Under the pieces are notes generated by a model. It did no database searches and was not told the origin of the DNA. It worked only from the letters and a program-made list of their open reading frames with translations. DNA of 30,541 nucleotides from a virus (lineage: Duplodnaviria > Caudoviricetes): the IMG/VR virus record IMGVR_UViG_3300031857_000937, positions 1 through 30,541 of that record; one strand, written 5' to 3'. The translations under genes and the position numbers were made by a program. Below, in pieces: positions 1,175 to 16,101 of the stretch. Numbering within the stretch: the first letter of the stretch is position 1; each line of letters starts with the position of its first letter.

Positions 1175-1787
1175 ACGCCCGCCAGTCAGTGTCATCCCAG
1201 TTGCCCTTGCCGTGGTTGCAGTCATGGCAAAGAATCTGGAGGTTGTTCACGTCAAGCGCCAGAGATGGCCACTTCTTGCGTGGCTTGATATGGTCTACGT
1301 TCATCACCGCCCCGCCAGCGGGAGTGGCTCCGCAGCACTGACACCTCGGGCCATACTTCTTCAGCGCCTCCATGCGTACCCTGCGCCACTGAAACGTGGA
1401 CAGGAAGGCGTCTGACGCAACATCTACGCCGGCCACCAAAACAGGCTTTTGAGTGATTGGCTTTTTTGGGGAGGGTTTGTGCGCGGTCTTTGCGTAGCCT
1501 GATGCAGCAAGGCGTTTGCTCTTACGTTGCTTCTTTGACAACTTGGCCGTTTTCGCGGCAGGACGCGGATACCTCTCGTGGTACTTGAAGCAGATGTAGG
1601 AGAAGTTGTCCCGAACCCATTGCTCAGGCTCCACGCTCATGGGGCAGGGCATACCGTCAGCCTCTAGCGCTAGGCAGGCTTGCTCCACTTCACTCAGCCC
1701 CACTCGATTCACAGATCGAAGCCGGGAGGTTATGAACCAAGGCAGCGCACTACTCTTCACTCTCTTCGCTTCACTTCTGTCTAACAT
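1173..1787 (-). CDS. HNH endonuclease with basic N-terminal region (204 aa)
   Basis: C-terminal WRRVR..ALKKYG.RCQCCG...VDHIKPR...LALDVNNLQILCHDCNHGKG is a canonical HNH/zinc motif. Start placed at ATG 1787 with GGGGG upstream. Confidence 0.85.
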   Translation of the reverse strand: MLDRSEAKRVKSSALPWFITSRLRSVNRVGLSEVEQACLALEADGMPCPMSVEPEQWVRDNFSYICFKYHERYPRPAAKTAKLSKKQRKSKRLAASGYAKTAHKPSPKKPITQKPVLVAGVDVASDAFLSTFQWRRVRMEALKKYGPRCQCCGATPAGGAVMNVDHIKPRKKWPSLALDVNNLQILCHDCNHGKGNWDDTDWRA

Positions 1788-1822
1788 CGCAGCCCCCACA
1801 CTGGTTATCACCCGGACCGAGT

Positions 1823-2091
1823 GACGGAGCAATCGGACACAGCCCACCCCTAGCCCGCAGACCGCGAGGTTGGCTGAAGATCAAAATGCTGGAATCACCC
1901 TTCGGTCGCTCCGTCGCTTTTTGGTTGCGGTCATCTCTCAATGTTCCGCCGCAACTGTCAGACATTTAGACCCATTGTGAGGTCCCTTCTTAGCGCACTG
2001 ACCAAGCTTGACCTGATTGTTGCCGTTGCCCCGGAGCACCCTAATCTCTCGACCCGGTTCCGTTCTGGCGGTTTACTCAACAATCAGCGCT
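1823..2091 (-). ncRNA. Putative large structured non-coding element upstream of the HNH gene
   Basis: No convincing ORF. Inverted repeats: GACGGAGC 1823-1830 / GCTCCGTC 1908-1915; GTTGCGG 1924-1930 / CCGCAAC 1949-1955; CTGATTGTTG 2013-2022 / CAACAATCAG 2078-2087. Strand is inferred from neighbouring transcription. Confidence 0.35.
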
Positions 2092-2382: not shown

Positions 2383-2449
2383 GAGGCTGATGGCGACCGG
2401 GCTCCCCCAATCCTGCGGTGTGTTGCCTTATCGGCGGTGTGTCGCTTAA

Positions 2450-2598
2450 CCATCACGGCTGGGGACTAAGGCGGGATTTGAACCCTTACCGGACTCCTCT
2501 TGGCTGACCATAGCGCCTGTCCGTTTGCCTTGCGACTTTCAGCGAGTCTCCAGAAGTGCGGCTACACCCCCTCGCCTCTTAGTCCCCATGCGTGATGG
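2450..2598 (-). ncRNA. tRNA-like structured RNA enclosed in a long processing-type stem
   Basis: Minus strand: CCATCACG-CAT-GGGGACTAAG ... GGG-TTCAAAT-CCC-GC-CTTAGTCCCC-AGC-CGTGATGG. It has a T-loop hairpin, an acceptor-like 10-bp stem, a D-arm-like hairpin and an oversized central arm. No canonical anticodon arm. Confidence 0.5.
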
Positions 2599-2602
2599 CC
2601 CA

Positions 2603-2633
2603 GAAAAGAACCCCCACGTCTAAGGTGGGGGTT
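2603..2633 (-). terminator. Rho-independent terminator after the resolvase-like gene
   Basis: AACCCCCAC (2609-2617) / GTGGGGGTT (2625-2633) perfect 9-bp stem followed on the minus strand by CTTTTCT. Confidence 0.65.
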
Positions 2634-2672
2634 AAATCACTCTGGAGAACATCATGAAAACGCAACCTCAGT

Positions 2673-2957
2673 TTAGCCGCATGTTTTGAGCAGCGCAAGC
2701 GCCTCTTCAGCGCTGTTCACGATGTACAGGTCTGCTCCCGGCCACTCGTCATGGAACTTCTGCTCCGCCTCAGTGAGCCGGCGTGCCGATGGAGGCTTGG
2801 CGCCATCCTTCACCTCGATCAGTAGCGTCTCCCCACGGTAGCTCACCAGCAGGTCGAACAGGCCCTCGTCGTTGATCACCTTCACGTAAGCGCCAGCCTC
2901 GCGCATGGCCTTAATGATGTCCTGTTCATTTGCGTCTCGGCGGGCAGCTCGTCGCAT
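2673..2957 (-). CDS. VRR-NUC / PD-(D/E)XK small nuclease, putative Holliday junction resolvase (94 aa)
   Basis: MRRAARRDANEQDIIKAMREAG...DLLV...LIEVKDG.K......LT..EQKF...W pattern of phage VRR-NUC-like resolvases. True start is likely ATG 2957. Confidence 0.8.
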   Translation of the reverse strand: MRRAARRDANEQDIIKAMREAGAYVKVINDEGLFDLLVSYRGETLLIEVKDGAKPPSARRLTEAEQKFHDEWPGADLYIVNSAEEALALLKTCG

Positions 2958-3004
2958 AGGGTTTGTCCTGATGAAAATATTTTCAAAACATATTGTATCT
3001 GGTG

Positions 3005-3032
3005 TTGACGAACCTAATACATCAGGTACAAT
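3005..3032 (+). promoter_or_regulatory. Sigma70-type promoter driving the repeat array and downstream genes
   Basis: TTGACG (3005-3010)-N16-TACAAT (3027-3032), about 30 nt before the first array unit. Confidence 0.7.
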
Positions 3033-3055
3033 CAAGTCCAACCTACCTGATGTAT
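3017..3055. promoter_or_regulatory. Perfect 12-bp inverted repeat (operator candidate)
   Basis: ATACATCAGGTA 3017-3028 / TACCTGATGTAT 3044-3055 with a 15-nt spacer, overlapping the -10 box and the predicted start site. Confidence 0.55.
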
Positions 3056-3061
3056 CTGCGG

Positions 3062-3720
3062 GGCCGGATTAGGCTAGGTCGGGCTTGGTAGTCAACGGCA
3101 TGGGCTGTTTACAGCGTCATGGCTTTTCAATGAAAGGTCATTTCGGTGGCAACACCAATCGGACGGCACGGTCGGGAAAGGCTCGGCACGGCGAGGAGAG
3201 GCGGGGACTGGTATGGGCTGTTAACAGCGGGAAGCATTTTTTACAGAGTGCTTTTCGGTGGCAACACCAAAGTGGCGTGGTTGTGGCTCGGAGCAGTGCG
3301 GTCAGGCTCGGTCGGCAAAGGCACGGCGAGGGCTGTTAACAGCGGGATCACTTTTCCATGAGAGGTGATTTCGGTGGCAACACCAAAATGGAAGGGCTGG
3401 CAGCGGCACGGCTAGGAGGGGTGTGGAAGGCTGGGGCATGGGCTGTTAACAGTGGTTAGTCACTTGCAAAGGTGGCTACCCGGTGGCAACACCATTTGGA
3501 CTGGCCTGCCACGGTGCGGCGGGGCGGGGTCGGGCATGGAAATTCTGGGTAAAACAAGGGCTGTTAACAGCGTTATGAGTCTTCATTGAGGGTTCATCTC
3601 GGTGGCAACACCAAGTGGCTTGGACACGCCGGGAATGGCTAGGAGGGGCGTGGATTGGCAGGGGCTAATGTAGCGTCATGACACTTCAATGAGGTGTCAT
3701 TTCGATGCAAAGCGTGCATC
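3062..3720 (+). ncRNA. Tandem array of six putative guide RNAs: GGH-NN pentamer tract + three hairpins (VIPR-like)
   Basis: Units at 3062-3156, 3165-3268, 3274-3384, 3390-3493, 3498-3612, 3617-3720. Each has 8-12 pentamers (50 of 60 start with GG; third base never G), then GGGCTGTTAACAGC, a variable covarying stem-loop and GGTG-GCAA-CACC. The last unit has divergent versions that still pair. Confidence 0.85.
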
Positions 3721-3740
3721 AATTAACCAAAGGAAACATC

Positions 3741-4310
3741 ATGAAAACAATCGCAGTTCAATTAACAGGCAAGGCTCCTTTTCTCATGCACTCGGACCGC
3801 TTTGCTAACCCGCTTGACCCACTTGCAAAGGCCCACAAAGAGCTGACCAGCAAGCGCAAGAAAACAGACGACGACCACACTGCCATCGCGCGCAGTGAGT
3901 TCATCGGCGGCTGCTACTGGCGCAAGGACGTTGGCTTCTTCTTGCCAGCACAGAACCTCGATGCGTGCCTGATCGCCGCAGCCAAGTTGCAAAAGCTCGG
4001 AGTTAAGTTCAAGCAGGGCGTGCAGGTATTGGAAGATGAGCTTACGTTTACGGGGTACGACAAGAAAACTCCCGAGCAACTATGGGAAGACCCAGAGCAC
4101 ATTGACTGCCGTGGTGTCAAGGTTGGCATGGCAAAGATCATGCGCTACCGCCCCATCCTTCGCAAGTGGTCTCTGAATGCAACCATCGTTGTCAACGAAG
4201 AAGTGGTCAACCTCAACGAAGTAAAGAAGGCTGTGCAAGATGCTGGAGCCCTGATTGGTTTGGGCGACTACCGCCCACGCTTTGGCCGTTTCAATGTGGA
4301 GTTCATTTGA
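3741..4310 (+). CDS. RAMP/Cas7-like RNA-binding protein (189 aa), putative effector of the upstream array (Vipr-like)
   Basis: AAGGAA Shine-Dalgarno then ATG 3741. N-terminal strand I.V.LTG.APFLMH, central LPAQNL.ACL..AAK helix and C-terminal glycine-rich loop GALIGLGDYRPRFGRFNV follow the RAMP (RRM-fold) pattern. Lies immediately downstream of the array. Confidence 0.75.
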   Translation: MKTIAVQLTGKAPFLMHSDRFANPLDPLAKAHKELTSKRKKTDDDHTAIARSEFIGGCYWRKDVGFFLPAQNLDACLIAAAKLQKLGVKFKQGVQVLEDELTFTGYDKKTPEQLWEDPEHIDCRGVKVGMAKIMRYRPILRKWSLNATIVVNEEVVNLNEVKKAVQDAGALIGLGDYRPRFGRFNVEFI

Positions 4311-4789
4311 TGCAAGAAATGACACTGTTCCCGGCTTGGAAACAGGCCGTCAAGATTCTGATTGATGAGGGCCTAACCTATGGCAGCACCATCAGCAGAA
4401 AGCGCATCTCTGAGCTTTGCAATGTGCGGCCACCAGAGAGCATTGAGGATGTGCGCCGACATGACCTCGAGCTCCTGCAATGCACATCAGAGATCAAAGA
4501 CATCCTGTTGACTGCCCACTGCATGCTCTTGGCGTCTGACAACAAGGGCTCTTACGTAGTCATTGAGCCAGAGTCGCAGACCCAGTACGCAGTGAACACC
4601 GGCATCAAAGCAATCGGTCGTGAGATGAAGAAGATGGCCATGTCCGTCAGCTTTACAAAGGCAGAAATGCTAACCGATGCCGGCAGGGCAAAGAACGCAG
4701 ATGCTCAGGCAAAGATTTCAATGCTCGCGGGAATGATGAACGTGAAAAACAAAGATCTTCAAAACGCACTAGGAGGAAAAAATGACTGA
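4310..4789 (+). CDS. Accessory protein coupled to the RAMP-like gene (159 aa, MQEMTLFPAWK...), possible winged-helix plus helical tail
   Basis: TGATG stop/start overlap at 4308-4312. A helix-helix-helix then beta-hairpin pattern (MLLASDNKGSYVVI) suggests a wHTH fold; the fold is inference. Confidence 0.7.
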   Translation: MQEMTLFPAWKQAVKILIDEGLTYGSTISRKRISELCNVRPPESIEDVRRHDLELLQCTSEIKDILLTAHCMLLASDNKGSYVVIEPESQTQYAVNTGIKAIGREMKKMAMSVSFTKAEMLTDAGRAKNADAQAKISMLAGMMNVKNKDLQNALGGKND

Positions 4790-9402: not shown

Positions 9403-12400
9403 TTACATCTGAGCCTGCTTCCGCAATTCGGGTAGATTGACCGACTTCAGCATCTCTTTTTCCACTTCGCGCAGCTCTTTGATTGCGTCCTTCTTTTCGG
9501 ATGCGGAGTACAAATCTTCAGGCGCATTGGTGATTTGGCTGACGGCCCTGCGAATCTTTGATAGCTGCTCGCCAATCTTCTCCGTGCCTTTGGCTAGACC
9601 CAATCGGGCAATATTCTTTTCGTCGGACAGGAACTTCTCAAGCTCTTGCGGGCTCCTCAATTTGATGTCGTTATAGGTGCTCTTGGTCTTCTCCACCTCA
9701 TCTCGCAAGGCGTAGAAGTCCGTCTTGAGCGCGTTCTCGCTGGCCTTGGTGACAAAGCCGCTTGTGCCCGGGAGGGATGACAGCGCATCACGGAACGACA
9801 GCTCAGGGCGGGGAACATCAGGATCATTGTTGATCATGAAGTTGGTCGTGTACAAAAACAAACCACCAGCCGATCCAAACATGCCGCGAATCATGTGATC
9901 AGCCGCAATTGGCGACACGCCAAACTGGCCCAGCATCTTCGAGAACTCCGAGGTGTTGTCATTGAACTGGCGCTCAGCTTCTTTCTTCTTCTCAAACTGC
10001 CCAATCAGTGGACGGCCTTGGAAGAAGTCGTAATTGATCGCCACCTCAAGAGCTGGCTTCACGGCTTGAGGAATCGGCTGTGGGCTCAGCACTGCGTTGG
10101 CAATGCCGTCGGCAACTGACTTCCTGAACTTGGCGCCATCGGAAAATCCGGTGTCGGTGATCAGGTGGTACAAGTGCTCGGTCAAAACCTTGGGCATCAA
10201 GAACAAGTCTGGACGCAAAGGAATGCGGAAACCACCGGTGCCGGGGACGTTCAAGGTGCGGTCACGAACAGCAGTGGGTGTCTTCTCGTACTCATCATCT
10301 CCGCCATTCATCATGGTGTAGAAGAGCGACAAGGCCATGACCGCACCAGAGGTGGTGGCCAGAGTCATCAGCGCCTCTTTGCGTTGCTGCGGCGAGATGC
10401 CGACCCCGGTCAGCACCTTGTACGCCGTGCGCTGCACCGACATGTAGGCATAGAAGAACGGCACAGTCTGGCCAGCCAAGTTCACCAGCTTGCTCGTGCC
10501 ACGGCGACGGAAGTTGATGATGTCAAATGCCTTCTCAATGGCCTCGCCCTTGGACAATCCCTGCTGCATGGATGCTTCGTACACGGCCTGACGGATAGCG
10601 TTATCAGCGGCCATAGCAACATGGCTCAGGAACTCAATTCCCTTGCCAGCCACCCCCTTTGACCCCCTCAAGCCTGCCGCAATCTGGATGTCGTTACGAG
10701 CGATGGTGGCGTTGAAGTCACGCACACCGGTCGCACCATACGACTCAAGCAGCTTGTGGGTTGCACTGGTCTTGGTCAGAGTCTTGAGAAACTCCTTCAC
10801 CGCCAGCACTGGAATTCTCAAGGCGTAGCGCGTCTTCAAGCCGGAGGTAAACATTGCCGAGTAGGCGTCCTGCGGGACCTGTGCCAACGAGAACAGGGGG
10901 TACAAGACCACAGACTGACGCAGAACGTTTGAGAACCAAGTGAAGAACTTCAGGCTTGGAATGGTCACGTTGCTGATGGCAGAGAAGGCATCCACGTACA
11001 GCGGGTCGGCCATGCTGTAGATTTCTTGGACGCCATCACGGAACACGCGAATGGTGTTCTTCTTGGGGTCCATCTTCTCGACCTTCTCAGCCATCTTCCG
11101 ATCACCCACTTGAAGCTCAGTACCAAGGTCAACCATCTGAAGCGCCTTGTGGTTGCGTACAGAGCGGTTGATGGCGTACTGAGTCCAGCGCACCATGTTG
11201 TCAAACACGTCGTTCACGGCTGCGTTGGAGCCCTTCAGGCGGAACTCTGCTGCCTTGACCTGCATGCCCTTGATGAACTCTTGCGGGCCACCGCCTTCGT
11301 CAAGCTGCTCTTCACGGTAGAACGGCACGTAAGCTGCGTTGTCCAGCATGCTCTCGGCATACTCTCGGCTCCACAAGTTGCCGTCAATCATGGCCTTCAC
11401 AGCGTTGGCACGGATACCCTGCCAGATGTCGCTGATGTTTTCCAGCTCGGGCATGTTCTTGGCCAAGCTCATGCCGGGCTCAATCATTGCAATCTGCTCA
11501 GGGGTAATCAGGACGCTGGCCTTTTCAAGCTTTGCAATGTCAGCCCTGATATCGTTCTTTGCACGCTCGGAAGTGCGAAGCTTCTCAAAGTCGCCGTCCT
11601 TCTTGTACTGCTTGATGTTGGCGTTCTCTTCTTCCAGCTCAGCTTTCAGTCGGTCAATCTCTGCCTCTCGCGTGCGCTGCTTTTTCAACAGGTCCTTGAA
11701 CCGCTTGGCCACGAAGTAGGTGTGCGAAATCTGCTCGGCCTGCTCTTTGTTTAGGCCATACTTTTCGGCAGTCTTCTCAATCTCTTTGGCAAGAGTGATG
11801 AAGTTGTCGTCGCGCTTGATGGAGACCCACTTCTTGGTCTCTGGATCGAACGCAATGCCGCCATCAACAATGAAGCGCGTAGCCAAGGCGTCAGCATGCA
11901 CGGCCTGAGACTGACTGGCCTCAAGCAGCATACCCAACACCTCTGGGTTGTCGGCAAAGTCCTTCTGCAAGTTCCTGCGGATGTCGTTGTTGAACGCCGC
12001 ATCGCCGGAGAAGGCTGCAACTTCCATCTTGTCCAAGAACTTCTTGACGGCACTCTTTGCCGAGTCCTTCGTCATTGCTGGGTTCTCGCCAGTGGCCTTC
12101 AGGATGTCCTTGATCTTCTGGATGCGCCCCGGGTCAGGCGGTTGAAGCTGCATGCCTGTTGCATCAAGGATGTTGAGGTTTTCTTGACCAGCCTCCGTCG
12201 GAGTCGGCTTTCCTTGGCGCTCTTCGGAGACTACAACCTCAACGTCTGGCGTACCGTAGACATCCTTTAATGCTTCTCGAACCTTGTTAGCAGTCTTGTT
12301 GGCATCCTTGGAGAACACGATGTCATTTGGATTTACATACTCCGCACGCTGCGTAAATCTTTCGCCGTTTTTGTCATAGCCATGAAAGGTGGTTTGCGTT

Positions 12401-15400
12401 TTTGGATCGGTAAATCCAGACAAGCGCGAGCCATCTTTCAGAGTTACTGGGTTCTTAAATCGGTTTGCGTAGCCTTGCTTGCGGTCTAACTCAGACTGCT
12501 CTTTGAAAAAAGAGTCAAGGAAAAACAGAGGTTTTTCTTTTTCTTCCTCGTCAACCTTTGCTTCGCCAGCGCCCTCGGGCGAGACGATGATTCTTCCACC
12601 CTTGATCTTGACGCCCTTCAAAGGAACCTTAGAGGGCTTCATGTCAAGCTCTACGTCCGAAGGCGACATGCCCATGATTGTTTCGGAAGTTCTAACCAGA
12701 TTGTCAAGTGCGCTCTCATAGTCTTTGGAAAGGCCAAGCACCTGACGGACGATTTCAATCAGCTTTGAAAACCCGGTCTTGTCTGCAATCTTGATGTCAG
12801 CAAGAAACTTCTGGAACTCTGAGTCGGTCAAACCCCAAGCCATAAGCTCAGCCGGGTTTTTCATAATGTTTGCGCCGCGATCAATCCTTGTAATCGCGTA
12901 GTTGCTCTTACCGGCAGCCCTGTCCTTTTTAATCCTGTCGTCAACTTTTTTGTACAGAACCTTGAGGTCGTTTATGGCTTTTGAGTTTGGCGCTAAGTAG
13001 ATTTGCGCAGATGTTGCTGCATGAATAAGCTCATGCAAGATTGTCAGATACCTTGTTCCCGTCTGACCGTCCGCCTTACCATCAACAAGTCCATTCAGCC
13101 TGATTTTTACAAGCGTGCCTTTGCCTTCGGCCCAGAAACTTTGGGCCATCCCTCTTGTTCCGCTTTTCCACCTTGCGCCGCCATTGAGAACCTTCACCTT
13201 TTCTGGAAAGATTTTTCTCTTTGCAAACTCGTTGATGCGCTCAGTTACTTTTTGAGCAATGGCCCTTGCCGCCTCGTTTGGTGCGTTGTCAACAGTCCAC
13301 TGCGCCATCTGAGGGATGGTCATACCGTTAACTTCTTTGGCAATCTCCTCCATGGGCTTGTTAATAGTGAACTCTGGCTTGTCCGTCTTGTCGTAGGTCG
13401 GCTCTGTTGGCTCTGGCGCCTTGGGCTCCACTGGTTTTGCGGCCTTGGGCTTTGCAGGTGCGGCAGGAGCAACGGCGGGCGCAGCAGCCTGCGGCTCAGC
13501 CGGAGCGGCGACTGGCGCTGCGGGCGGAGTAAACATGTCAGGCTCAGCTTCTGGCTCCAGTACCAAAGCCTTGTACAGGTCATCCTTTGGCATCTTCGGA
13601 ACATTGCCAAACATGTCTGTGTCGGAGGCGTTTGCCTGCTCGGCAGCAGTTGTCGCCAGACGATCCAGCGCTTCAGCCATACGCTTTGATGAACGGCTGT
13701 TATCCGCAAACATCTCGAGCACTTTGAGCGCATACGGGTCTGCGCCCAGCATTCCCTGCTGTACGTAATCCTTGAGCTTCTGACCTGACCTACGTGCATT
13801 GACGGCCATCTCTGCCGCATCAAGCACCGAGGCCCGCACGTCGTAGTCGCCAGCGCCATCAAGAGCCGCCATCTTTGGAGCGGCCTTGGCCAGCGCATTG
13901 AGCACAGCCTTCGCTTCTGGGTCGGCAGCTTGCGCGTACAGCTCAATCAGAGTGTCGCTGCCATATGCCTTGTAGAAGATTGCGTTGTTCAGGCGGTCAA
14001 TCGCCTTGGTGTTGGGCATGCCCTTGGCGTCGATCAACTCACCCTGCTCATCCTTCGGCATGGAGCGAACGAACTGGATCAGCGTGTTGGTGTTGGGGCT
14101 GCCGTCGTCATTGAAGGTCAGGCCGCCCAAGTCAACCCGGCTGATATCGTTCTTTGCGGACTCGACAGGACTCAGGCGCAGCGTGCCACTAATGTTGCTG
14201 ATATCCGCAATGTTTGAAGTTACCTTCGACTTTGGCATCACGCGCACAAGCACTGGATTTTGGAAGCCGCTGATGACGCCGGCATCAATGCCGTGCTCAG
14301 TGTCTTCAATCATCTCGCGCTTGTAGTTGTCAGCAGTTCCTTGGCTGTAGGCCGCACGCAAACCAGCCACCCGGCCATTACCGGCAATGGGGCGAATCGC
14401 GGATACGGACAAGTCGCCGTACTCGGGGTTCTTTGTACCATCAGAAGTGTTTGATGGCGTGATGTCGTTGCCCTCTACAACAGCGTAGCGGACAGGGATT
14501 CGAGTGCCATCAGATGCGGTGGCGTATGCAACCTTGCCGAACTGGGTATCGCTGATTGGCGTGTCGGAAATAACAACCGGGGCACCAGAGCCAAAGTCAC
14601 GGTTAACACTCAGGCGAGAGTAGTCTGGGTTAGCTGCAATGCTTTGCATTTGACCAACGGACGCAGGCGCAGAGCGGTCACGGTTCTGGAAGAACGAACC
14701 AGCTTCTGGCGGCAGGTTTTCCGTGTAGTCATTGGACCACTCCGAAGCCTTTGGGGCCTGTGCGGCGGGGGCAAGAGGCTCTACCGGAGCAACTGGCTCT
14801 GCCGGAGCGGCGCTTACCAGTGGCTCCTCTGGTGTGGGGGTTGGCTCAACCACAGGGGCCGCTGGCGGTGCTGGCGGCTCTGGCGTAACAATGGGCCTTG
14901 CGACTGGCCGTGGCGTAATCGGAGCGACGGGCGCGGGCGGCGCTTCGGCGGCAGGCTTTTTGAGGGCGTCAGTAGCCGTTGCATAAGCGGCAGCAGGAAT
15001 CTCAACAGCAGCACCACCAAGGCTACCCAGCATCTCTTGGCCAACATCTTCAAGGTTAACCTTGCCGTATGCGGCGGCCTGACCAGCGGCCTCGGAGATG
15101 CCTCCTCCTGCCACATCAATACCCAAAGATCCAGCACCACGACCAACAGCCGACTGAACCTTCTGGCCAGTGGTACGGGCTTTAAGCAGATCATCTGCGC
15201 GGGCCGCAATCTTTGCTGCGTCAGCCGTGGCACCCATTTCTTTGCGCGCGGCTTCGATGGCTGCACGGCGTGTGCCAGTGGCGAATCGACCAGCACCAAC
15301 CGTCATAAGTGAGTCAATGGAGGCAGTTGTTATGCCCTTTGTGCGAGCCTCGCTGACCGCCTTCTCCATGGCGGGGGTGTCGCGCAACAGTGCGGCTACA

Positions 15401-16101
15401 TTCGCCTCTGTCGGCTCAAGGCCCCGCTCACGAAGTGCGTCGCCAATACGTCCGATGAATTCAGAGCCAACCTCCAGCGGAGCGCCGGCAGCAAACCCGC
15501 CACCAATAGCGCCCACACCAGCACCTATTGCTGCGCCGCCGGGGCCACCAGCAGAGCCAATCAATGCTCCGCCCTTGCCGCCAGCAATCATGCCTGCGAT
15601 CTGAGGAGCCATATTCGCCGCGCTTTGAGCCGCCAAGTACGCGGCACCCTTGGGGTTTGTAACGGCCTGCTTACCAAACTCAAGCAGCATGTCTGCTACT
15701 GGACCAATACTCTCTCTGAATCCTTTGGCCTTCTCAAAAGCAGCAGCCTCATCTTTAAATGCAGTCTGTGCCGCCACCAACTCAGCGGGACGCACGCCAT
15801 CAGGGCGACTTAACTCCTGAGATAAAAGCGCAGCCTTATCCGCGCCAACATTTCCGGTCACTACGGATGGGGCAATCTTGGCAGCGCCAATGGCACGCTC
15901 GCCACCCTCATAGATCAACGATCCGATGTTAGACAGGAAGCCCTTTTCTTCTTTGGCCTCGTCGGTCATCCACTGGTTGTTTACCAAGTAGGCTTTTTGC
16001 CCTTGGTTGTTTGTGGCAGTTTGCCCAACCGGCACCCACTGACCATCGACCAATGCAACTGTCTCGCCTGTCTGTGGGTTTGTCGCGGTTTGGATTGCCA
16101 T
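9403..16101 (-). CDS. Large polyvalent (ejected/internal virion) protein, 2232 aa: DdrB-like ParB domain, zincin HExxH motif, LPD38-like C-terminus
   Basis: QNRDRS...GAPVV...IAGNGRVAGLRAAY (about 14190-14700); TILHELIHAAT (about 13010-13045); NYDFFQGRPLI...SP.AADHMIRG..G near the C-terminus. Last gene of the virion operon. Confidence 0.8.
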   Translation of the reverse strand: MAIQTATNPQTGETVALVDGQWVPVGQTATNNQGQKAYLVNNQWMTDEAKEEKGFLSNIGSLIYEGGERAIGAAKIAPSVVTGNVGADKAALLSQELSRPDGVRPAELVAAQTAFKDEAAAFEKAKGFRESIGPVADMLLEFGKQAVTNPKGAAYLAAQSAANMAPQIAGMIAGGKGGALIGSAGGPGGAAIGAGVGAIGGGFAAGAPLEVGSEFIGRIGDALRERGLEPTEANVAALLRDTPAMEKAVSEARTKGITTASIDSLMTVGAGRFATGTRRAAIEAARKEMGATADAAKIAARADDLLKARTTGQKVQSAVGRGAGSLGIDVAGGGISEAAGQAAAYGKVNLEDVGQEMLGSLGGAAVEIPAAAYATATDALKKPAAEAPPAPVAPITPRPVARPIVTPEPPAPPAAPVVEPTPTPEEPLVSAAPAEPVAPVEPLAPAAQAPKASEWSNDYTENLPPEAGSFFQNRDRSAPASVGQMQSIAANPDYSRLSVNRDFGSGAPVVISDTPISDTQFGKVAYATASDGTRIPVRYAVVEGNDITPSNTSDGTKNPEYGDLSVSAIRPIAGNGRVAGLRAAYSQGTADNYKREMIEDTEHGIDAGVISGFQNPVLVRVMPKSKVTSNIADISNISGTLRLSPVESAKNDISRVDLGGLTFNDDGSPNTNTLIQFVRSMPKDEQGELIDAKGMPNTKAIDRLNNAIFYKAYGSDTLIELYAQAADPEAKAVLNALAKAAPKMAALDGAGDYDVRASVLDAAEMAVNARRSGQKLKDYVQQGMLGADPYALKVLEMFADNSRSSKRMAEALDRLATTAAEQANASDTDMFGNVPKMPKDDLYKALVLEPEAEPDMFTPPAAPVAAPAEPQAAAPAVAPAAPAKPKAAKPVEPKAPEPTEPTYDKTDKPEFTINKPMEEIAKEVNGMTIPQMAQWTVDNAPNEAARAIAQKVTERINEFAKRKIFPEKVKVLNGGARWKSGTRGMAQSFWAEGKGTLVKIRLNGLVDGKADGQTGTRYLTILHELIHAATSAQIYLAPNSKAINDLKVLYKKVDDRIKKDRAAGKSNYAITRIDRGANIMKNPAELMAWGLTDSEFQKFLADIKIADKTGFSKLIEIVRQVLGLSKDYESALDNLVRTSETIMGMSPSDVELDMKPSKVPLKGVKIKGGRIIVSPEGAGEAKVDEEEKEKPLFFLDSFFKEQSELDRKQGYANRFKNPVTLKDGSRLSGFTDPKTQTTFHGYDKNGERFTQRAEYVNPNDIVFSKDANKTANKVREALKDVYGTPDVEVVVSEERQGKPTPTEAGQENLNILDATGMQLQPPDPGRIQKIKDILKATGENPAMTKDSAKSAVKKFLDKMEVAAFSGDAAFNNDIRRNLQKDFADNPEVLGMLLEASQSQAVHADALATRFIVDGGIAFDPETKKWVSIKRDDNFITLAKEIEKTAEKYGLNKEQAEQISHTYFVAKRFKDLLKKQRTREAEIDRLKAELEEENANIKQYKKDGDFEKLRTSERAKNDIRADIAKLEKASVLITPEQIAMIEPGMSLAKNMPELENISDIWQGIRANAVKAMIDGNLWSREYAESMLDNAAYVPFYREEQLDEGGGPQEFIKGMQVKAAEFRLKGSNAAVNDVFDNMVRWTQYAINRSVRNHKALQMVDLGTELQVGDRKMAEKVEKMDPKKNTIRVFRDGVQEIYSMADPLYVDAFSAISNVTIPSLKFFTWFSNVLRQSVVLYPLFSLAQVPQDAYSAMFTSGLKTRYALRIPVLAVKEFLKTLTKTSATHKLLESYGATGVRDFNATIARNDIQIAAGLRGSKGVAGKGIEFLSHVAMAADNAIRQAVYEASMQQGLSKGEAIEKAFDIINFRRRGTSKLVNLAGQTVPFFYAYMSVQRTAYKVLTGVGISPQQRKEALMTLATTSGAVMALSLFYTMMNGGDDEYEKTPTAVRDRTLNVPGTGGFRIPLRPDLFLMPKVLTEHLYHLITDTGFSDGAKFRKSVADGIANAVLSPQPIPQAVKPALEVAINYDFFQGRPLIGQFEKKKEAERQFNDNTSEFSKMLGQFGVSPIAADHMIRGMFGSAGGLFLYTTNFMINNDPDVPRPELSFRDALSSLPGTSGFVTKASENALKTDFYALRDEVEKTKSTYNDIKLRSPQELEKFLSDEKNIARLGLAKGTEKIGEQLSKIRRAVSQITNAPEDLYSASEKKDAIKELREVEKEMLKSVNLPELRKQAQM

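Follow-up and report, generated by a model that had tools for sequence, protein, structure and literature searches.

The pentamer array upstream of two small genes in this phage genome raises the question of whether its five-base units store a guide code and, if so, which genes are read by it. The window analysed here, meaning the whole stretch of 30,541 nucleotides, is a linear IMG/VR record that is 47% complete, and it carries tail, lysis, and recombination genes. With a probability that we put at roughly 0.93, the locus is a phage VIPR: the tracts would be made as vrRNAs and coated by Vipr, their variable dinucleotides (NN) would read DNA, and Vipr together with Vap1 would repress genes of resident elements, namely those for integrases, recombinases, and accessory functions. 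As far as its sequence tells, the locus is type II-like and its scaffold is relaxed; targets are predicted for four guides (Table 1).

Table 1. Features of the pentamer array and the genes behind it (positions are those of the window).
Feature	Position	Strand	Content	Target
Guide tract U1	3062..3101	+	8 repeats	none found
Tail 1	3102..3157	+	short hairpin, long covarying hairpin, GGTG-GCAA-CACC hairpin	
Guide tract U2	3165..3214	+	10 repeats	predicted: YTRKST[DE][DE]GL catalytic-serine motif, DUF2924-linked large serine recombinases, template strand
Tail 2	3215..3269	+		
Guide tract U3	3274..3329	+	11 repeats, one of 6 nt	predicted: HGFRS[ST]FRDWAAE motif, P4-type tyrosine integrases, coding strand
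Tail 3	3330..3385	+		
Guide tract U4	3390..3439	+	10 repeats	predicted: IPLTPYVA[HQ]L, tyrosine integrase family, coding strand
Tail 4	3440..3494	+		
Guide tract U5	3498..3557	+	12 repeats	likely: 5' end (LLTAGGRIxC) of HGGxSTG gene, small tRNA-integrated element, template strand
Tail 5	3558..3613	+		
Guide tract U6	3617..3661	+	9 repeats	none found
Tail 6	3662..3722	+	sequence divergent; three hairpins all retained through compensatory changes	
Sigma-70-type promoter-like site	3005..3032	+	TTGACG-16-TACAAT, 10/12 match, upstream of array	
vipr	3741..4310	+	189 aa, RAMP-fold protein with G-loop	
vap1-family accessory gene	4310..4789	+	159 aa	

According to the preliminary description, the array consists of 60 pentamers, 37 with GGY, 13 with GGA, and 10 without GG; our recount gave exactly these numbers, the 60 units being made up of 58 strictly phased ones (35 GGY, 13 GGA, 10 non-GG) and the two 5' units of U3 (GGCGT, GGTTGT). 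Its account of a third base that is never G and of free positions 4 and 5 was also borne out by the 58 phased units, in which the third base is C in 29, T in 13, A in 16, and G in none, and the information per position is 1.45, 1.24, 0.50, 0.04, and 0.01 bits. In-phase GGH reached at most 4/10 in 50-nt windows outside the array (n = 60,283, both strands), against up to 10/10 inside it, and GGGCT lies directly 3' of each of the six tracts. The tracts had been described completely, while the promoter, the sixth tail, and the two downstream genes had been left out.

One tail of about 56 nt, the structured 3' element by which VIPR arrays are recognised, stands behind each tract, with folding z scores of -2.5 to -5.3 against mononucleotide shuffles. 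In the long middle stem, each position stays paired in 25-29 of the 29 tails compared, and up to five pair types occur; the outer hairpins could alternatively fold as one rod. The promoter-like motif was found at two sites, against 0.5 in shuffles, and also upstream of arrays in nine related loci; the site in front of the array would serve as its promoter. A perfect 12-bp inverted repeat (3017-3028 and 3044-3055), whose downstream arm is kept in nine related loci, flanks the -10 box and the likely array start site, and is possibly an operator for autoregulation. Rfam gave no family at the gathering threshold in the window and only chance matches at E<1, and no tRNA was found there. Elsewhere in the window, a 160-nt intergenic segment (2445-2605, minus strand) with a 21-bp closing stem (z -4.4) and a T-arm-like GGTTCAAATCC was matched by neither ARAGORN nor Rfam, and a 2232-aa large polyvalent protein (LPD38, ddrB-ParB) is encoded among the virion genes (9403-16101, minus strand).

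The first gene behind the array encodes a small homologue of RAMP proteins that has an RRM, a thumb, and a G-loop, features by which VIPR loci are recognised. The protein matches SUSP1 Vipr (PDB 36pp) at E 7.8e-46 and 38% identity, belongs with it to phrog_4652, and was modelled with a pLDDT of 89, the nearest folds being Csm3/Cas7 RAMPs (Foldseek E 1e-5, TM about 0.5). Residues H17, K33, R39, K82, G87, R138, D177, and R179, to which the structure paper (bioRxiv 2026.04.26.720927) attributes the recognition of G1/G2 and the clamping of DNA, are identical in SUSP1; W178 is replaced by Y and K88 by V, and the third-base pocket differs at four residues (E71Q, M72N, C173I, V175L). Residue 175 is printed as T175 in that paper (10.64898/2026.04.26.720927); in the PDB sequence it is V. 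The second gene was assigned to phrog_5926 (E 1e-15), which also contains the gene that follows vipr in SUSP1; the two are 21% identical over 131 aa in a pairwise alignment (E 4e-6). We take that SUSP1 gene to be vap1 from its position. A single-sequence model of Vap reached a pLDDT of 47 and was unusable. Both genes are intact, and the locus has the minimal phage layout of vipr and one vap with a long intergenic region and no CRISPR array. The layout recurs in the 49 related viral loci compared, tracts preceding vipr in 48 and a vap following it in 48. The array and the two genes are covered, at 95-99% identity, by contigs of an RNA library (run X1); such contigs reveal neither transcription nor RNA ends.

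Short ORFs overlap the array, as they would if it were a slippage microsatellite or a degenerate coding repeat without guide function, which is the least credible of the explanations weighed here; the near-zero information at positions 4 and 5, the covarying tails, and the linkage to vipr in 48 of 49 loci all speak against it, and the target matches that follow, codon-phased on recombinase motifs, refute it.

The preliminary description held that specificity is stored non-contiguously in the NN positions. The analysis supports this, but the code is not new, being the VIPR code already in print, where the rule of a 1-nt skip, the targeting of recombinases, and non-GGY repeats are described (bioRxiv 10.64898/2026.04.26.720920). 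Decoding followed the published rule, the NN of each guide being joined with one wildcard, and it places four of the six guides in frame on conserved mobile-element genes, on one strand or the other, such that the skipped base falls at the wobble position of the codon.

The 20-base gapped pattern of U4 gave 36 exact matches in 596 Gb of genomes, where about one is expected by our own arithmetic, and 36/36 lie in the same frame over IPLTPYVA[HQ]L of one tyrosine integrase family, with 10/10 NN matched and the wildcard on the wobble base. Judged from record names, the matching genomes are mostly Burkholderiales, including Limnohabitans, Rhodoferax, and Curvibacter, and from this target taxonomy we infer a Burkholderiales host. 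The full pattern had no match in viral contigs; the 16-base core had six there, two in integrases and four in one family out of coding frame.

About 980 viral stretches contain the 16-base core of U2; for the cores of U4, U1, U5, and U6 the corresponding numbers are 6, 7, 3, and 36. Among the matches listed, 120/120 fall on the YTRKSTxxG catalytic-serine motif of large serine recombinases, and 97 of these 120 fit 9/10 NN, the 3'-terminal unit fitting in none. Resolvase and Recombinase domains were present in 3/3 target loci scanned, and a DUF2924-like gene in 74 of the 80 with full flanks. In an earlier study, a SUSP1 guide is likewise aimed just upstream of the catalytic serine of a satellite recombinase (10.64898/2026.10.15.759431).

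As a control on the skip, 104 of the 111 clade guides (seven with fewer than 8 NN being left out) were run on the 120 recombinase loci. A skip of 1 gave 16 perfect 8-NN windows, and skips of 0, 2, and 3 gave 0, 0, and 1. Of the 16 windows, ten are circular, coming from U2-family guides that had fetched the loci, and the other six fall on three further sites (VVYKIDRL in the recombinase, a HELGH-motif peptidase gene, and an LPK[RK]V[DE]W gene). On 38 tyrosine-integrase loci, only two U4-family guides reached 8/8 and no other guide did.

For U3, 10/11 NN, read across the 6-nt slip, fit a P4-type integrase at HGFRSSFRDWAAETT (locus L228), and its sister guides spell the longer HGFRSTFRDWAAE motif. 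U3 alone is weak: at two mismatches it matched 68 of 301 genomes against about 40 for the backwards control (our own count), P4-type integrases were present in only 4 of 33 fetched loci, and its exact pattern had one match in viral contigs, out of any long frame shown. U5 matches at 9 of its first 10 NN (9/12 overall) at the start of an HGGxSTG gene; its search matched 2 of 301 genomes against 0 for controls, one of them being the HGGxSTG locus. This gene lies in a satellite-like element of about 4 kb beside tRNA-Cys, with a tyrosine integrase and a PriCT-1/AAA_25 primase-helicase (L321, 10492-14509), and the small gene has 880 protein relatives. Position by position, 96-120 of 120 relatives retain the T-A-G-G-R-I-x-C encoded at the U5 site. 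Seven of the 104 clade guides match the family at the amino-acid level; the number in eight shuffles was 0-1. The U5 target itself is one DNA locus, a protein search of 151 genomes having returned only that seed, and an alternative is an 8/8 match in one viral ORF that looks serine-recombinase-like by eye (L257). The remaining two guides gave no target: U1 had seven viral matches, six of them one locus and out of wobble phase, and matched 5 of 301 genomes against 8 for controls (our own count), and U6 had 36 viral and 18 metagenome matches spread across various frames and genes, with 10 of the metagenome matches belonging to one repeat that lacks a long ORF.

The strands chosen bear on what the guides act upon. 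Two guides (U3, U4) pair with the coding strand and two (U2, U5) with the template strand, a mixture that DNA targeting would lead one to expect. That the guides might act on RNA, or on genes of the phage itself and not on the DNA of other elements, is highly improbable, though less so than a repeat without guide function. It draws on the complementarity of U3 and U4 to the coding strand and hence to mRNA, on the binding of ssRNA by Vipr in vitro reported in 10.64898/2026.04.26.720927, and on the half of the phage genome that is missing from the record; the template-strand pairing of U2 and U5 tells against it. So does the search for self targets, in which the best fit at skip 1 was 5-6 NN within the 30.5-kb record, itself 47% complete, and so does the lack of a vipr in the target loci. 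No vipr was found in five target-bearing genomes either. Across 2.85 Mb of target loci there are two GGH runs, which is the chance level. One site (L078, 8330-8430) has a GGH pentamer run next to which, on the opposite strand, a shorter run of GG units leads into GGGCT and a hairpin, just upstream of a targeted integrase; the runs resemble a solo vrRNA, yet are at chance level.

Repression of DNA targets by the VIPR locus would proceed much as in SUSP1, from which most of the steps are borrowed. The array would be transcribed from the promoter-like site, and the transcript would be cut into vrRNAs of about 110 nt; Vipr would polymerise on the repeats, forming a filament and a triplex, and the NN pairs would bind dsDNA at two bases in every three. 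Vipr and Vap1 would then repress the integrase, recombinase, and accessory genes of resident mobile elements, so that satellite excision would be blocked and the infection would not be hijacked.

The preliminary description also read GGA as the relaxation of a GGY-only rule, and this view holds on the GGA share of the clade, on position-3 swaps in same-target guides, and on the NN matches in GGA units. In loci with a Vipr identity of ≥84%, 137 of 479 GG units (29%) are GGA; the share is 17% where identity is 76-83%, 3-4% in loci further away, and 1/43 in SUSP1, and it differs between subclades; GGG makes up 0/479 in the nearest clade. Because GGG is absent while GGA is common, the change is selective. 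In 14 recombinase-motif and 10 P4-motif guides, position 3 may be C, T, or A, with a majority identity of 0.72 and 0.66, respectively, and NN identity is 0.91-1.0, a value inflated by the choice of same-target sets by NN match. With NN the most conserved part of same-target guides and position 3 the least, the earlier criterion, under which NN as conserved as GG would refute the code, is misleading. In the four decoded guides of the window, NN match the best target in 24/27 GGY, 8/9 GGA, and 6/7 non-GG units. GGA is a real scaffold variant, and GGA and degenerate units keep information, since their NN fit the targets like those of GGY units.

The 22% of units with GGA might bind less well, given that the SUSP1 third-base pocket is described as excluding purines in the structure paper (10.64898/2026.04.26.720927). 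It is very unlikely that the array is decaying, with the GGA and non-GG units as lesions and guides that no longer work well. Such decay would agree with the 23 of 60 units that are not GGY, with the SUSP1 experiments, where GGY>GGA was among the perturbations tested and GGY perturbation abolished silencing (10.64898/2026.04.26.720920), and with the pocket residues Q71/N72/I173/L175 being the same in relatives with 0-3% GGA; it does not agree with the absence of GGG, with NN that hold while position 3 swaps, with the target fit of all three unit classes, or with two intact genes. The same residues in these relatives also led us to reject the pocket changes as the cause of GGA. Published non-GGY repeats include NNNGG, YNNNG, and NNNNG, a term search of that paper's supplement having found no GGH (bioRxiv 10.64898/2026.04.26.720920). 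In 10.64898/2026.10.21.760802, 21 clusters are listed whose fixed triplets are different ones, and searches of the accessible text of that paper and of 10.64898/2026.10.15.759431 did not find GGA.

The guide sets of related phages differ. A close strain (run X1, contig 2; window 3320-3883) keeps U4 and U5 and has other 48-letter inserts between tails, and a locus with 99% Vipr identity (L001) has a different guide set; guide turnover, read from these sequences, is fast. Long guides in five loci (L016, L018, L022, L028, L033) look chimeric, the TRKSTxxG core being joined to varying 5' or 3' halves, some of which match another target (in L016, the HGGxSTG gene in addition to the recombinase); new guides may thus arise when repeats recombine with each other. 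One of these phages (L033) has two divergent vrRNA arrays upstream of vipr (1448-1826, minus strand; 2668-2990, plus strand).

A broader reading, to which we give somewhat less than even chances, is that a widespread freshwater betaproteobacterial phage clade has a relaxed VIPR that reads GGA and non-GG units like GGY and rotates a guide library, as a broad weapon against mobilisation, aimed at several unrelated recombinase families, its guides also exposing a previously undescribed tRNA-integrated mini-satellite of about 4 kb whose small HGGxSTG gene, matched by seven clade guides, would be the key hijacking factor. A natural VIPR with a relaxed GGH scaffold would provide a test of the claim of a purine-excluding third-base pocket and could loosen guide design, and its targets are named and testable outside E. 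coli and Pseudomonas. The clade guides may also serve as pointers to phage parasites in freshwater Burkholderiales, including the DUF2924-recombinase and HGGxSTG elements, for which no description as satellites was found in the literature searched by title listings.

Among known systems, Class 1 CRISPR Cas7/Csm3 RAMPs share the RAMP fold with thumb and G-loop; unlike them, the present locus has a non-contiguous guide and lacks a CRISPR repeat-spacer array, and a scan of 24-25 ORFs found no cas operon. The VIPR relatives in Pseudomonas prophages (such as LESphi2 and Medea1), which may correspond to the P. fulva clade of the paper, have upstream arrays, GGGCT-opened tails of like build (L042-L046), and the pocket residues Q71/N72, but their Vipr identity is 45-58% and their GGA share about 4%. 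The nearest described counterpart is the SUSP1 type II VIPR (PDB 36pp; 10.64898/2026.04.26.720920,.720927, 10.64898/2026.10.15.759431). Both have a Vipr homologue and a vap1-family partner from one PHROG family, a trait of type II. They also share pentamer repeats with a 3' structured tail, the 1-nt skip on the wobble base, targeting of both strands, and a guide at the catalytic-serine region of a serine recombinase. Tracts of 8-12 repeats with a GGH consensus accord with the published form of about 9-16 pentamers of GGY/NN or related type. The strict GGY with a purine-excluding pocket, a SUSP1 trait that is not stated as type-defining, is replaced here by 13/60 GGA and four changed pocket residues, next to W178Y and K88V, and the clade share of GGA is 29% against 2% in SUSP1. 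Unlike in SUSP1, all six guides lie upstream in one array, and the tail is a different one with three hairpins. SUSP1 guides converge on one satellite, whereas the present guides are predicted to address at least three unrelated recombinase families and the HGGxSTG gene, in betaproteobacterial targets.
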